Source of the DNA: Candidatus Peribacter riflensis
GTDB lineage: Bacteria; Patescibacteriota; Gracilibacteria; Peribacterales; Peribacteraceae
Assembly (NCBI GenBank): GCA_001430755.1
Contig: CP013062.1
Coordinates: 480,001-512,000 of the forward strand
Reading direction: 5' to 3'
DNA length: 32,000 bases
Shown here one piece after another: positions 26,099-32,000 of the stretch (the first letter of the stretch is position 1; every line of letters starts with the position of its first letter). The position numbers were made by a program, and so were the translations under genes. The notes beneath the pieces were generated by a model that was given only the letters and a program-made list of their open reading frames with translations, ran no database searches and was not told the origin of the DNA.

Positions 26099-26470
26099 AC
26101 GTGATGACAAGGGACGAGATGCTCTGTGGATAGAGAAAGAGAAAACCGCGCCAAAGATACCCTCTTTCATCATTTTGTCCAAATCGGCTGTAGGCTGGAA
26201 CATTTTGAAGCAGATGAGCATTCTTAAGCCTGTTTCAGTGCAGGGCATGAGCCTCTCATGAAACCCGGTATTCAATTAGAAATAATGAAACATATTACCG
26301 ATTTGACAATCATGATAAATATTATTAACAAACGATGGATAAGTGGCTACTGAAGTACTCGATCTAACTTTTGACGAATCGTTCATTTAATTGACTTAAC
26401 TACAGTAAAGACTAGCATTCATCCCTTTATGGTTTCTGTCCACTTATCATCTATTTTCCCCACGGTCATT

Positions 26471-29400
26471 ATGGAAAAACGAGAAGCAGCGAAGAAAATC
26501 TTCGCCACGATTGCCCTATTTCTGCTCTTGGTTTCTCAACCGGGGGTGTCTTCGCTCTGGAGCCTCGTTCCGGCCGTCGCCGAAGAGAGCTCGTCTTCTG
26601 AGCAAAGCATGTCTTCAGAGGCGCAGGCTCCTGCGCCGGCAATCGAGCCGCCAATCTTCGATGAATCGCAGGCGGTGCTCATGGCTCCGATCATGCCTTC
26701 GAGCTCTGTGGAATCTGTGCCAAACGTCCAGGCATCTATCGAGGAGGACCAGTCCTCATCCGTCACGAATCAGCCTCAGGCATCTCCTGTCGCTGAGCAG
26801 GTGGTCACTTCCGGAATGCAGGCATTTTCTGCAGGCGGATCGGCGTTTACGTGGCAAATTATCTGTGGGGAATCTGGCAGCAACCGCAACATCGCCTGCA
26901 ATGAAGCCTGCAGTCACTGTTGGAGCGATACCTACTACTTCTGGCGGAAATTTCTGCTGAAGGAAATCGGCTATTTCTACCGTGATAACCATGGAAACCG
27001 CGTGAAAGTGCCGTTCGCAACGGGCCAGAATATCTGCCGTGACGGCACCTCAGCCGTGAGCGGCGGAGGGACCGTTCCGGCCGGCATCACCGTGCTCGGC
27101 ACGTACACCTCGTGGAAGATCAATGATTACACGCATCTCTATACCCTCTACTCCGACACGCATTCAGCCATTGTCTGCCCGCGTGGAGGAAACCGCACCG
27201 ACTACTACTGGGATGACGGCGGAAACCCGGGCACCCACAACGATGGCCGCCTGATCTTCAACTACTCTCCCGCCCCCGCACAGTGCGCGGACGGCATCGA
27301 CAATGACAACGATGGAGCCACCGATACGGCAGATTTCAGCTGCTCCTCAACGACAGACACCGACGAGACCAATCCCAAGGCCCAGTGCCAGGATGGATCG
27401 GATAACGATGGAGACGGCGTTGTAGACGGGCAGGATCCCGGCTGCAGCGGCAACCAGGACAACGACGAGCACAACATCTGTCCCGCAGCCACGCAGACCT
27501 CCACCTGCCACTGCGCCACGAACGCGGACTGCACCGCCCCCGACACCTGCCAGAGCGGCATCTGCCGTCCGGTGACGTACCAGTGTAATGACGGCATTGA
27601 TAACGATAATGACGGGGCAACGGACTTCCCGAATGATTTCAGCTGCTCCTCGGCCACGGACAACGACGAGACGAATCCGAAGGCCCAGTGCCAGGATGGC
27701 GTGGATAACGATCAGGATGGAAAAACCGATGCACAGGATCCCGGGTGCTCCGATGCCCAAGATAATGATGAATGGAACGCATCTTCGTCATCCTCATCCT
27801 CCTCCGTGCCCGGCACTACGCAGTGCAGCGACGGCATCGACAATGATCAGGATGGAAAAATAGATGCGTTGGTCGAGCTGAGCCCGACCAACGGCCAGAC
27901 GCGGGTCTGGAACGCCGACACCGTCGGCATTCGCGCCTTCTACAACCAGAAGGCCGCCGAACGCGGATACACGCAGATTTCCACGAACTGGAACGGGCAG
28001 GGCATGGTGAGCAACGATGCCACCACCGCAGACAAGATCTGCGAGCTGGCGGGATTCAACACAGTCGTCTCCAGAAACTGCTTCGAGTACGGCACGAGCG
28101 GACGCTGTAACTTCTCCAGCTGCGGCGACAACAGTATGGGCGTGTGGAGCACATCTGCCAATAACATGAACATCGTGGGTGCCTGCGGGTACACGTGGCT
28201 GGCTTCCCTCACCTGCCGCGACCGTCTGGCCGCCTGCAGTGACGGCATCGACAACGACGGTGACGGCCAGAAAGATATGGCCGACAGCGGCTGCGCAACG
28301 CCGAACGATGACAGCGAGATCGCCCACGATCCGGACTGCACCGGTCCGAGCGATCCGACCGAGGCACCTGCCTACCAGTGCTCCGACGGCATCGACAATG
28401 ACAACGACGGAGCCACTGATATGAACGACTTCAGCTGTTCTTCACCCACGGATACCGACGAGACGAACCCGAAGGCCCAGTGCCAGGATGGCGTGGATAA
28501 CGATCAGGATGGAAAAACCGATTATCCAAACGATCCGGGCTGCAGCTCAAAACAGGATAATGATGAGTACAATACGAATCCCTACTGCGCCAACAATACG
28601 TCCATGACCGCTCCCGAGATGGCATCTGCCATCACCGCGGGCGCCGTGACCGCAACCTTCACGCAACAGGGTGGTCAGGAGATCATCCACATCAATAACA
28701 CGACAGGCTGCAGGGCGCCGGTGGTGCTGGCCTCGTACAAGGTCTTCATCGCCCCGACGAATCCAGGATGGCTGGATACGCAGGAATTCATCGCAGAATC
28801 CGCAGTGACCAACATCCAGCCGACCGGCACGACGGATATCAGTGTGGCTGTTGCCTCCTGCAAATCTCAGGTGGATCTGTGGTACCAATTCGCCCCGCAC
28901 CAACTGCAAGACAGCGATCCGTATCACAATCCGAATCAGCTTCCCTACGTCATGTTTGCGGCGATGTCCTCGGGCGGTCTCTGTCCTGTTACGACGGCAC
29001 AGTGCTCCGACGGCATCGACAACGATCAAGACGGTGCCACGGATTGGCCATGGGATTTCAGTTGTTCATCCATCGATGACAACGATGAAACATTCCCGAA
29101 GGCCGAGTGTCAGGATGGCATCGACAATGATCAGGATGGAAAGACCGATTACCAGCAGGATCCCGACTGCGGAGGGAACCAGCAAGGAACAGAGGGAACG
29201 CCCCTCCTCACCTGCCCCGGCGGCTCCAATAAGCTCACAATCCTCAGCGGAACGGATACGCTCCTCAATAACGGACAACCGTCCGCGATCACGTGGAGCA
29301 ATCATGCGCTCTGGAACGCCAGTATCCCCGGCGCTTCCTGGCTCTGGTCTTCCTTCTACGTCACCGACCCGACGGTCCAGCAGGATAACCTCCTCGCGAA

Positions 29401-32000
29401 GTCGTTCCAGATCCCCGGCCCCGTCACCGCCACGAAACTGACGGTGGCAGCAGATAACCAATTCCGCGCGGCCATCAACGGGCACCTGTTCAACGGAAAC
29501 TACCACGAAGGGACCTTCCAGAAGGAAATCTCTTACACGAACTCAACGTATTTCCAGCAAGGTGCGAACATCCTTTCTTTCGATGTGAGAAACCTGGGAG
29601 TCGCAGGTTCGACAGCGCAGACAAATCCGGCCGGACTCCTCTACCGGTTGGAAGTGTGCTACCAGCCTACGCCGCCTCCCCAGTGCAGCGACGGCATCGA
29701 CAATGACAACGATGGAGCCACTGATATGAACGACTTCAGCTGTTCTTCACCCACGGACAACGATGAGACGAATCCCAAGGCCCAGTGCCAGGATGGCGTG
29801 GATAACGATCAGGATGGACTTGCAGACTACCCGATGGATCCGGGCTGCAGCGGGAATCAGGATAACGACGAGCGCAACATCTGCCCCGCAGCGACGCAGA
29901 CCTCGACCTGCCGCTGCGCCACGAATGCCGACTGCACCTCACCCGACACCTGCCAGAACGGGTACTGCCGGCCAGTGACGTACCAGTGTAATGACGGTAT
30001 CGACAACGATCAGGACGGCAAGACCGATTACCCGAATGACCCGGACTGCGTGAGCCCGAGTGATAATGACGAAACCGGCTCGATCGGCAGCTGCAACGGG
30101 CAACCGATCAGCCTGACAAGCCTGCCGAATTTGCAATCAATTATCCTACACGAGGATACGACAAACATAGCAACGTATACCTTTGCAAAGAACGATCCCA
30201 AGTTGTTCCAGGACCTCAACCAGAGTCCTACATCCTACGACTTCTCTACGAATGCCGACGAGTACTACGATCTCTACATCAGTAACGCCGATGGTTCGGT
30301 GAATCCAAACGGCAGTTACCTGACAATCGATGATTTCCGCAACAATACGCTTTTGAATGCCCAGGTTGGCCACAACATAGACGCAGTGGAACTCAAGCTC
30401 TCAAGCGGCCCGAGTTTCTACGCAGACAAGGTGGTGAAGGTTGCCATCGGCACAGGCCTCTCCGGCGACTACCTGAACCAGAACGGCTACGCAACAAGGG
30501 CGCTCGGCACACCAAATGCACAGAGTACTCGCCTGGGCGATCAGCATGCGCGCCTGGTGCTCGGGTTCTGCGATGCGCTCCAGAATCTGCCGGCATGTTC
30601 CGATGGCATTGATAATGATGGGGACGGCGCAACCGACTATCCAGGTGACTTCAGTTGCGACTCTCCGACAGACAACGATGAAACGAATCCCAAGGCCCAG
30701 TGCCAGGATGGCATCGACAACGATCAGGATGGACTCATCGACTATCCCAATGATCTTGGATGTTCCAGTGCGCAGGATCAGACCGAGGCCAACACCGATA
30801 TCTGCAGCGCAGACGGCGACATCAGCATGAAAATTTACCTCACACATGTCAGTAATGAAGGGGCTGGGAATACGCAGCCTAAAATCTATCTGACGAACGA
30901 ATCGCTTCCCGTGAATCCAGGACAGACCATTGACCTTGTGCAAAACGGAGTGCCTGTGATCGATGCAATAGAACAATTGAATATCCCGGGGCTCTCGGTA
31001 CAGCGAGGAAATGGATGGGTGCGAATCGGACTGTACGGCAGCCATCCGACACACGAATCCATCGAACGTATGATTGGAGAAATGGTCCTGCTGGGCGCGC
31101 AGGTCACGGCATTTGAAAATGATACGCGAGCCAGCAACCCAGTGGAGCGGCCGCGCAACAACATCCACCGTGGCATTCCAACGGAAGACGAAGTGTATCC
31201 GAATGTCGGAACCAATAATACTGCGTTCTTCCTGACCGTCGACACGGCGAACGACGTCTTCACGATCCGCTACGCACCTGTACTCTGTCCCGCACCGCAG
31301 GCGGATCTCTCGGTGACGAAGAGCGGGCCTTCCTCTGTCGTGGCAGGCAATACGGTCTCGTACACCGTGACCGCGGCAAATGCCGGACCGCATACCGCAA
31401 CGAACGTGGTCATCGCGGATGTGATTCCAGCAGGGCTGACCTTCGATGCAGGGGCCTCGACCCCGGGTTGTATCCTCAACGGAGCAGGCACCAGCGTGCT
31501 GTGCAATAACTTCTCGCTCACGGCCGGGCAGACGCGCACCTTCACCATCGCCTTCACGGTGCCTTCCACGCACCCGTGCGACGGAACGAATATGATCACG
31601 AATCAGGCGACGGTCTCCTCCTCGCAGGGGGATCCGAATGCCGGCAATAACACGAGCACAACGGTGACGACGCCGGTGCAATGTCCCGCCGCACCGAAAG
31701 CGGATCTCTCGATCGTGAAGACGGGACCGAGTTCCGTGCTGCGCGGCGAGGCGATCGCGTACACCGTGACCGTGACGAATGCCGGCCCCACAGACGCCCA
31801 GAACGTGGTGATCACGGATCTGATTCCCACAGGGCTGACCTTCGATGCAGGGGCCTCGACCCCGGGTTGTGTCCTCAACGGAGGCGGAACCAGCGTGCTG
31901 TGCAATAACTTCACCTTGCAGCCCGCGCAGAGCCGCACCTTCACCATCGCCTTCACAACGGCTTCTTCGCTCTCCTGCGGATCGACGATCCGCAACACGG
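26471..32000 (+). CDS. giant secreted/surface repeat protein, 3'-truncated by the window (at least 1,843 codons)
   Basis: My own translation of the frame starting at ATG 26471 finds no stop up to nt 31999. It is absent from the ORF track. The N-terminus MEKREAAKKIFATIALFLLLVSQPGVSS... looks like a signal peptide. All repeat motifs fall in this frame; spot checks at 27284, 27584, 27821, 28235, 29681, 30596, 31301 and 31682 confirm it. Confidence 0.85.
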   Translation, partial: MEKREAAKKIFATIALFLLLVSQPGVSSLWSLVPAVAEESSSSEQSMSSEAQAPAPAIEPPIFDESQAVLMAPIMPSSSVESVPNVQASIEEDQSSSVTNQPQASPVAEQVVTSGMQAFSAGGSAFTWQIICGESGSNRNIACNEACSHCWSDTYYFWRKFLLKEIGYFYRDNHGNRVKVPFATGQNICRDGTSAVSGGGTVPAGITVLGTYTSWKINDYTHLYTLYSDTHSAIVCPRGGNRTDYYWDDGGNPGTHNDGRLIFNYSPAPAQCADGIDNDNDGATDTADFSCSSTTDTDETNPKAQCQDGSDNDGDGVVDGQDPGCSGNQDNDEHNICPAATQTSTCHCATNADCTAPDTCQSGICRPVTYQCNDGIDNDNDGATDFPNDFSCSSATDNDETNPKAQCQDGVDNDQDGKTDAQDPGCSDAQDNDEWNASSSSSSSSVPGTTQCSDGIDNDQDGKIDALVELSPTNGQTRVWNADTVGIRAFYNQKAAERGYTQISTNWNGQGMVSNDATTADKICELAGFNTVVSRNCFEYGTSGRCNFSSCGDNSMGVWSTSANNMNIVGACGYTWLASLTCRDRLAACSDGIDNDGDGQKDMADSGCATPNDDSEIAHDPDCTGPSDPTEAPAYQCSDGIDNDNDGATDMNDFSCSSPTDTDETNPKAQCQDGVDNDQDGKTDYPNDPGCSSKQDNDEYNTNPYCANNTSMTAPEMASAITAGAVTATFTQQGGQEIIHINNTTGCRAPVVLASYKVFIAPTNPGWLDTQEFIAESAVTNIQPTGTTDISVAVASCKSQVDLWYQFAPHQLQDSDPYHNPNQLPYVMFAAMSSGGLCPVTTAQCSDGIDNDQDGATDWPWDFSCSSIDDNDETFPKAECQDGIDNDQDGKTDYQQDPDCGGNQQGTEGTPLLTCPGGSNKLTILSGTDTLLNNGQPSAITWSNHALWNASIPGASWLWSSFYVTDPTVQQDNLLAKSFQIPGPVTATKLTVAADNQFRAAINGHLFNGNYHEGTFQKEISYTNSTYFQQGANILSFDVRNLGVAGSTAQTNPAGLLYRLEVCYQPTPPPQCSDGIDNDNDGATDMNDFSCSSPTDNDETNPKAQCQDGVDNDQDGLADYPMDPGCSGNQDNDERNICPAATQTSTCRCATNADCTSPDTCQNGYCRPVTYQCNDGIDNDQDGKTDYPNDPDCVSPSDNDETGSIGSCNGQPISLTSLPNLQSIILHEDTTNIATYTFAKNDPKLFQDLNQSPTSYDFSTNADEYYDLYISNADGSVNPNGSYLTIDDFRNNTLLNAQVGHNIDAVELKLSSGPSFYADKVVKVAIGTGLSGDYLNQNGYATRALGTPNAQSTRLGDQHARLVLGFCDALQNLPACSDGIDNDGDGATDYPGDFSCDSPTDNDETNPKAQCQDGIDNDQDGLIDYPNDLGCSSAQDQTEANTDICSADGDISMKIYLTHVSNEGAGNTQPKIYLTNESLPVNPGQTIDLVQNGVPVIDAIEQLNIPGLSVQRGNGWVRIGLYGSHPTHESIERMIGEMVLLGAQVTAFENDTRASNPVERPRNNIHRGIPTEDEVYPNVGTNNTAFFLTVDTANDVFTIRYAPVLCPAPQADLSVTKSGPSSVVAGNTVSYTVTAANAGPHTATNVVIADVIPAGLTFDAGASTPGCILNGAGTSVLCNNFSLTAGQTRTFTIAFTVPSTHPCDGTNMITNQATVSSSQGDPNAGNNTSTTVTTPVQCPAAPKADLSIVKTGPSSVLRGEAIAYTVTVTNAGPTDAQNVVITDLIPTGLTFDAGASTPGCVLNGGGTSVLCNNFTLQPAQSRTFTIAFTTASSLSCGSTIRNT
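27281..30772 (+). repeat. array of 15 C-x-DG-x-DND-x-DG-x-x-D motifs within the giant ORF
   Basis: Six double modules read QC(S/A/N)DGIDNDNDGATD..DFSCSS.TD.DETNPKAQCQDG(V/I)DNDQDG..D...DPGC. They start near 27281, 27581, 28376, 28998, 29681 and 30590. Three single motifs lie near 27821, 28232 and 29981. Confidence 0.85.
31289..32000 (+). repeat. tandem DUF11-like domains (period 399 nt) at the end of the visible giant ORF
   Basis: ADLS(V/I)(T/V)K(S/T)GPSSV...YTVT..NAGP..A.NVVI.D.IP.GLTFDAGASTPGC.LNG..TSVLCNNF occurs twice. A 41-nt identical run lies at 31431-31471 and again at 31830-31870. Confidence 0.75.

Follow-up and report, generated by a model that had tools for sequence, protein, structure and literature searches.

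The question raised by this locus is what an aspartate-rich, cysteine-containing motif does when it recurs 15 times within a single giant protein of Candidatus Peribacter riflensis. Candidatus Peribacter belongs to the candidate phyla radiation (CPR) bacteria and is believed to spend its life fixed to other cells. The stretch of its genome that we analysed, here called the window, comprises 32,000 nucleotides (GenBank assembly GCA_001430755.1, contig CP013062.1, positions 480,001 to 512,000 of the forward strand). Bare nucleotide coordinates refer to this whole stretch, the prefix C1 marks genome contig coordinates, and residue numbers are those of the long open reading frame (ORF) that contains the motifs. 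We propose, with a probability of about 0.72, that the motifs belong to Ca2+-loaded loop units, each closed by one disulfide, and that pairs of two unit types, A followed by B, act as rigid spacers in an adhesin-like surface protein.

An array of 34-residue acidic units

The preliminary description of this DNA, made from the letters alone, listed 15 in-frame motifs organised as six doubles and three singles. A regular expression (regex) search with C.DG.DND.DG..D recovers exactly this set: 15 matches, all in the +2 frame of one ORF, with six pairs (first cysteine, Cys1, at residues 286/320, 386/421, 651/685, 859/894, 1086/1120 and 1390/1425) and three singles (466, 603 and 1187). The first Cys codon lies at 27284 and the final motif ends at 30742, and the peptide that had been quoted as an example is present at residues 650–706. 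The window's five remaining frames contain no match, nor does any of 2,000 residue shuffles, and the expectation from composition is about 4e-7 matches.

The ORF is open on the plus strand from 26429 to beyond position 32000, with 1,857 residues and no stop inside the window. It ends at C1:518053, equivalent to window position 38053, and the full product has 3,874 residues. A seventh A+B pair lies beyond the window at residues 2013/2048, bringing the whole protein to 17 units.

Alignment of the copies gives a repeating unit of about 34 residues rather than 14, with the pattern C-x-DG-x-DND-x-DG-x-x-D-x2-3-D-x-x-C-x4-D-x-DE. Residue 5 of the aligned unit is Ile, Val or Ser (C-x-D-G-[IVS]-D-N-D-x-D-G-x-x-D), and all 17 units keep the D-N-D-x-D-G-x-x-D core without change. 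Units of type A finish with DFSC and continue into a fixed linker, S-x-TD-x-DETNPKAQ; those of type B finish with DP[GD]C. The B unit comes after the A unit in every one of the seven pairs, which are 68–70 residues long, and the complete singles are B-like. Those at residues 603 and 1187 are complete, whereas the third supposed single, at residue 466, has the N-terminal loop only and lacks the closing Cys. This half unit leads directly into an insert of about 120 residues with six Cys. Half unit and insert together (27824–28234) may represent a unit into which a domain has been inserted, or else a unit that has decayed.

A one-disulfide variant of a catalogued repeat

The arrangement had initially not been recognised as a described family. 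The repeat is in fact catalogued: the NCBIfam model NF033662 (acid_disulf_rpt, acidic double-disulfide repeat) matches all 15 in-window units, scoring 238 bits where the curated cut-off is 41, and single units score 20–37 bits each in a six-frame genome search. The units have in common with this 32-position model its C-x-D-x-x-D-N-D-x-D-G-x-x-D core. The genome encodes two further giant proteins rich in Cys, each with one canonical copy (C-x-D-x-x-DND-x-DG-x-x-DC-x-D-x-DC-x5-C), with four Cys at profile positions 7, 21, 26 and 32. The units of the giant protein studied here retain just the Cys of positions 7 and 26 and lack the inner ones (16 of the 17 possess the closing Cys), and thus represent a one-disulfide variant of the double-disulfide repeat. 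The full set of four Cys that gives NF033662 its two disulfides per repeat is absent from them, and they differ further from the model in their conserved D-x-D-E tail and in the alternation of A and B. The two remaining cysteines, Cys1 and Cys2, would be expected to pair with each other within each unit.

Pfam scans at E values up to 10 covered the whole protein, double modules taken singly and every insert, and assigned nothing in the repeat region or the inserts; the Pfam matches of the giant protein are DUF11-type domains at its C-terminal end only. A literature search on the acidic double-disulfide repeat and NF033662 found no papers, and the A/B pairing has no separate description in the Pfam scans, the NCBIfam scan or the literature search. 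The substitution of the central Cys by N, Q or G and the pairing of units through a fixed linker were described correctly at the outset, and the pairing is kept in relatives.

The teneurin-4 C-rich domain is the best solved relative by sequence

The best Protein Data Bank match of a profile made from the six in-window pairs is human teneurin-4's C-rich domain (7PLP; E 0.016). A pair profile built from 126 sequences, from loci in other genomes, again places 7PLP first (E 4.2e-4), with calmodulin EF loops next (E 0.02–0.2). The canonical four-Cys copy of the same genome aligns with 7PLP ungapped over 32 residues with all four Cys in register (E 8.4e-6). A single-sequence search of the same database with one double module gave only spurious matches (a designed Kelch protein and Rpb6).

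The teneurin-4 C-rich domain binds three Ca2+ ions through E835, D840, D843, N844, D845, D847, D851, D854 and D856 together with three backbone carbonyls (Meijer et al. 2022, PMC9058538). Its sites I and II match those of thrombospondin type-3 repeats and site III matches that of low-density lipoprotein receptor A modules; its disulfides are C838–C857, C852–C863 and C858–C869, Ca2+ stabilises the protein, and the domain is located in the dimer interface region (PMC9058538).

In our alignment, Cys1 and Cys2 of the unit fall on C838 and C857, and D3, D6, N7, D8, D10, D14 and D17/18 fall on D840, D843, N844, D845, D847, D851 and D854. Common to both would be the loop-closing disulfide, six of the eight acidic ligands together with N844 and, going by the predicted model of the pair, a lack of regular secondary structure. 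In teneurin-4 there is a single copy with six Cys (paired 1–3, 2–5 and 4–6) and a conotoxin-like C-terminal half, whereas here there are 17 copies with a different tail. Judging from the DxDxDGxxDxxD type-3 motif, the kept residues would correspond to Ca sites I and II. The likeness to calcium-binding loops of the thrombospondin type-3 kind that had been suspected from the letters is thereby supported, both by the core motif and by a closest solved relative whose sites I and II are of that kind (PMC9058538). By analogy with this relative, we infer that the units bind Ca2+.

AlphaFold2 modelling of a double module with the 126-sequence alignment gave a mean predicted local distance difference test (pLDDT) score of 92.3 and a predicted template modelling score of 0.72, with no helix or strand; with the six in-gene copies only, pLDDT fell to 56 and the model was unusable. 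A confident model devoid of helices is what a loop domain wrapped around ions would be expected to give.

Comparison with known calcium- and metal-binding families

The units also resemble thrombospondin type-3 repeats (PF02412; PDB 1UX6) directly, in the DxDxDGxxDxxD calcium motif and the bracketing disulfides. Kvansakul 2004 and Carlson 2005 are said to describe type-3 repeats, too, as units in tandem that alternate between two versions and build up a Ca-filled 'wire'. The Cys spacing and the unit length differ from those of the type-3 repeat, and the TSP_3 model (PF02412, cut-off 25 bits) has no match in the giant gene at E<=10, nor one there when all six frames are searched at E<=1. It does match above cut-off elsewhere in the genome (26 bits, C1:1103738-1103806, in a large ORF).

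For EF-hands, the resemblance is confined to the loop: D-x-D-G-D-G-x-I-D aligns with the calmodulin loops at the E values given above, whereas the loop of the units is closed by a disulfide, has no flanking helices, and is predicted in a model that contains no helix of at least four residues. Dockerins were likewise rejected, with no Pfam match and no helices in the model.

The preliminary description had further compared the motif with the 'putative metal-binding motif' of MopE, and the units could on that basis be binders of copper or another transition metal. The two have the string C-x-DG-x-DND-x-DG in common, and the teneurin Cys-rich motif has itself been likened to bacterial 'putative metal-binding motifs' (Tucker 2012, as cited by Jackson et al. 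2019, PMC6425310), so that part of the comparison stands. Membership of the family does not: the units lack the central Cys of the MopE DNDCDG, and the Cu-binding_MopE model (PF11617, cut-off 27 bits) reaches only 16.6 bits (E 0.02) in the half unit at residue 466 and leaves 16 of the 17 units unmatched. Ligands of the Asp, Asn and Glu type favour Ca2+, the ion bound by the solved relative, and we regard a transition-metal role as very improbable. PF11617 matches above cut-off elsewhere in the genome (42 bits, C1:98257-98349, in a large ORF); this and the TSP_3 match, both in other ORFs, bring the number of distinct Asp/Cys calcium-type repeat families in the genome to three or more.

The units are conserved, old and widespread

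We searched 1.84 billion representative proteins, clustered at 50% identity, with profiles of the repeat. The unit is found in 8,459 clusters at E<=1e-3 and in 832 at E<=1e-30, and full-length pair matches occur in all of the best 150 clusters. Scanned relatives from other phyla score 134–737 bits on NF033662. The acidic positions, whose conservation in relatives had been left for checking, prove to be strongly kept: over 1,388 module instances from 150 representative proteins, the five core Asp are conserved at 96–99% and the Cys columns at 97–100%, with the tail Glu at 95–99%, the tail Asp at 85–86% and D3 at about 80%. The conserved ligand-type positions are all Asp, Asn or Glu; none is His, Met, Trp or a free Cys.

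So dense a set of oxygen-donor ligands, with eight conserved acidic residues per 34, would also suit a store of cations or a mineral-nucleating surface, in which about 17 units with two to three sites each would concentrate Ca2+, Mg2+ or a lanthanide at the cell envelope; the groundwater habitat fits such a role. This seems to us improbable, because the sites of the solved relative are of the buried, structural DxDxDG type and because folded domains stand between the units, which do not make up a single acidic block.

The six in-window pairs have 65–83% protein identity and 61–87% DNA identity to a reference copy. Between copies within the gene, the median synonymous divergence (pS) is 0.77, which is saturated, and the median non-synonymous divergence (pN) is 0.19. 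Saturated pS with a conserved peptide indicates that the pairs are old and under purifying selection, and the saturation rules out recent slippage as their origin. The region is rich in Asp and Asn and some of its DNA repeats are 85–87% identical, as would be the case for an unfolded, low-complexity acidic linker repeated by recent slippage only. That explanation is effectively refuted by the saturated synonymous sites alongside a conserved peptide, by Cys and Asp columns that are conserved across phyla, and by a model with a pLDDT of 92.

Genome records show the repeat in Peribacteria and further CPR lineages, in DPANN and additional archaea, and in Myxococcota, Bdellovibrionota, Gammaproteobacteria and Actinomycetota, among others; the cultured organisms that carry it include Tahibacter soli and Patulibacter minatonensis. 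Its distribution is patchy: matches to the pair profile are present in 20 of 24 genomes belonging to the same family but in only 2 of 16 from other families of the class, and in an even sample of the phylum 13 of 301 genomes match at E<=1e-8. Peribacteria typically show the A/B alternation, with 23 A and 23 B units in six loci; it is rare outside them, where uniform B-like arrays prevail.

Globular inserts between the modules

The pairs and singles alternate with inserts that match no known family (Table 1). In three of these (28583–29002, 29201–29683 and 30053–30595), the first Cys stands exactly where Cys1 of a next unit would be expected, 15 residues after Cys2, and the last Cys lies 7–9 residues ahead of Cys1 of the next module. 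The bracketing pairs (Cys 720/852, 929/1077 and 1222/1381) suggest a disulfide that staples the N terminus of the insert to its C terminus, leaving the insert hanging off the module chain. Among 291 inserts of 90–400 residues between consecutive units, taken from 150 related proteins, 187 have the start-Cys feature, 131 the end-Cys feature and 71 both. The Cys count is even in 282 of the 291, which supports pairing of Cys1 with Cys2 within each unit.

A smaller, six-Cys knot-like module is present twice, and the duplication extends into its flanks (27433–27636 and 29836–30039, 85% DNA identity over 204 nucleotides). It has no Pfam match beyond a chance-level one to Dumpy DPY.

The repeat modules could instead be the adhesive element themselves, recognising a host glycan or protein in a Ca2+-dependent manner like that of dockerin–cohesin pairs or C-type lectins. 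The position of the teneurin-4 domain in a dimer interface region would fit this, as would the many copies per protein and the persistence of A and B as distinct types over long times, which could mean that they present a specific surface. Unlike recognition surfaces, however, the modules have few variable positions and are near-identical between copies and genera, and specificity would more plausibly reside in the globular inserts, which are not conserved. As there is also no Dockerin or lectin Pfam match and the model is free of helices, we consider this explanation unlikely.

Protein architecture and genome context

The features of the window are collected in Table 1. Read from the translation, the N-terminus would be a probable signal peptide or anchor. 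Beyond the repeat and insert region, hidden Markov models (HMMs) for DUF11 match above cut-off (PF01345, 134 bits against 24.6; TIGR01451, 81.6 bits against 24), and the DUF11 array occupies most of the remaining 2,000 residues. The C-terminal part of the giant protein thus consists of this long array, an FPQTG motif and a hydrophobic transmembrane helix. The FPQTG sequence stands about 40 residues before the C-terminal helix and its following KK (C1:517800-518053) and might serve as a sortase signal of atypical form; three sortase genes are present in the genome.

Table 1. Features of the giant surface-protein gene in the window
Feature	Window coordinates	Strand	Basis
Giant surface-protein gene	26429..32000, cut by window edge	+	ORF, whole-genome extension
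Probable signal peptide / N-terminal anchor	26471..26581	+	Lys-rich n-region, hydrophobic core, AVA-EE site, counted from Met15
A+B double module 1 (Cys1 at residues 286, 320)	27278..27493	+	regex, alignment, NF033662 stretches
Six-Cys knot-like module copy 1 (C-x8-C-x-C-x5-C-x5-C-x4-C), no family match	27479..27565	+	DNA repeat
A+B double module 2 (residues 386, 421)	27578..27793	+	regex, alignment
Half unit (residues 466-479): Cys1 and DxDxDG loop, no closing Cys	27824..27865	+	regex, Cys map
Insert domain, residues 480-602, 6 Cys, no family match	27866..28234	+	Pfam, Cys map
Single B-like unit (residues 603-630)	28235..28318	+	regex
A+B double module 3 (residues 651, 685), copy modelled by AlphaFold2	28373..28588	+	regex, alignment
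Insert domain, residues 719-858, bracketed by Cys 720/852, no family match	28583..29002	+	Pfam, Cys map
A+B double module 4 (residues 859, 894)	28997..29212	+	regex, alignment
Insert domain, residues 925-1085, bracketed by Cys 929/1077, no family match	29201..29683	+	Pfam, Cys map
A+B double module 5 (residues 1086, 1120)	29678..29893	+	regex, alignment
Six-Cys knot-like module copy 2	29882..29968	+	DNA repeat, Cys map
Single B-type unit (residues 1187-1215)	29987..30073	+	regex
Insert domain, residues 1209-1389, bracketed by Cys 1222/1381, no family match	30053..30595	+	Pfam, Cys map
A+B double module 6 (residues 1390, 1425)	30590..30805	+	regex, alignment
Start of long DUF11 (PF01345 / TIGR01451) array	31304..32000	+	HMM matches

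A near-identical relative in the representative protein library (P0005, 2,601 residues) is shorter overall and lacks about 50 residues around residues 455–650, which fits the strain-level variation in such proteins reported in PMC4736985. The same work describes large Cys-rich extracellular proteins of Ca. Peribacter riflensis, proposed for attachment and weakly similar to Myxococcus Cys-rich repeats (PMC4736985).

The two other giant proteins that carry canonical four-Cys NF033662 units, one unit each, are adjacent, measure about 2,100 and 1,377 residues and are encoded at C1:1205192-1215675 on the minus strand. They are composed of GACC...C...C modules and Ser-rich linkers, both have a transmembrane helix at the C terminus, and they probably belong to a Cys-rich cluster of 14 genes that has been reported for Ca. 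P. riflensis.

The genes tgt and rplU lie upstream of the giant gene, and pth, signal peptidase I (lepB), nusG and murJ lie downstream. Being housekeeping genes, these neighbours offer no operon partner from which a function could be read. Next to murJ, some 5.6 kb downstream of the giant gene, is a weak match to DsbA-like Thioredoxin_4 (26.5 bits, C1:523696-524487, minus strand). The genome encodes three DsbA-like Thioredoxin_4 proteins, and no VKOR gene was found in it.

Discussion

The explanation that we favour for the array runs as follows. Each unit of about 34 residues would be a small loop domain without regular secondary structure, closed by the Cys1–Cys2 disulfide and folded around Ca2+ held by the DxDxDGxxDxx(x)D cluster, with two and possibly three ions per unit. 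The type-3-like sites I and II would be kept; the third site, short of two teneurin ligands, may be rebuilt from the D..E tail. An A unit followed by a B unit would form a rod-like pair, and the seven pairs and three singles would separate unrelated globular inserts in a region that precedes the long DUF11 array and the C-terminal membrane anchor. From this placement between inserts, the pairs are most likely Ca2+-stiffened, protease-resistant connectors, which would space and orient the binding domains of a C-terminally anchored, adhesin-like surface fibre.

Several observations weigh against this explanation. The match to 7PLP spans about 24 of the 34 residues of the unit with a marginal E value. 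Although six of the eight teneurin acidic ligands and the Asn are retained, E835 and D856 have no counterpart, and neither do C852, C858, C863 and C869, leaving two of the three teneurin disulfides missing. With those ligands and disulfides lost, both the stoichiometry of ion binding and the rigidity could differ from those of teneurin. A Foldseek comparison of the model with the Protein Data Bank also ranks 7PLP first, at a non-significant level (E 8.9, 16 columns, root-mean-square deviation 1.4 Å), loop-only mini-domains being outside the reach of the method. Finally, the architecture of the protein is the sole basis on which we infer a stalk or adhesin role.

A more specific proposal, which we put forward only tentatively, is that A and B together constitute a distinct two-unit superdomain. 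Here the A tail (D-x-DETNPKAQ) would complete a third Ca2+ site shared with the B unit, giving a rigid rod of 70 residues on which the Cys-stapled globular domains sit as side beads. The one-disulfide form would then be a widespread prokaryotic archetype, and NF033662, with two disulfides, and the teneurin C-rich domain, with three, would be elaborations of it.

Much about the repeat is already known: it is catalogued by NCBI, it has a solved eukaryotic counterpart, and publications already point out how that counterpart resembles bacterial motifs. Three features are specific here: a one-disulfide unit with its D..E tail, the A/B pairing typical of the lineage, and the proposed use of pairs as connectors between inserts that would be stapled by disulfides. 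For this locus itself the outcome is mainly one of annotation, and the protein is a large, fairly ordinary member of its kind.

The wider interest lies in the family. The repeat is widespread in prokaryotes, yet it has no Pfam family. If the connector explanation is true, it would anchor a prokaryotic ancestry of the teneurin C-rich domain, and a module of 34 residues would be small enough to serve as an engineered Ca-dependent rigid linker. Above all, if the one-disulfide unit binds Ca2+ and stiffens fibres, it would supply a structural rule for thousands of giant 'hypothetical' envelope proteins, which include attachment proteins of episymbiotic ultra-small bacteria.

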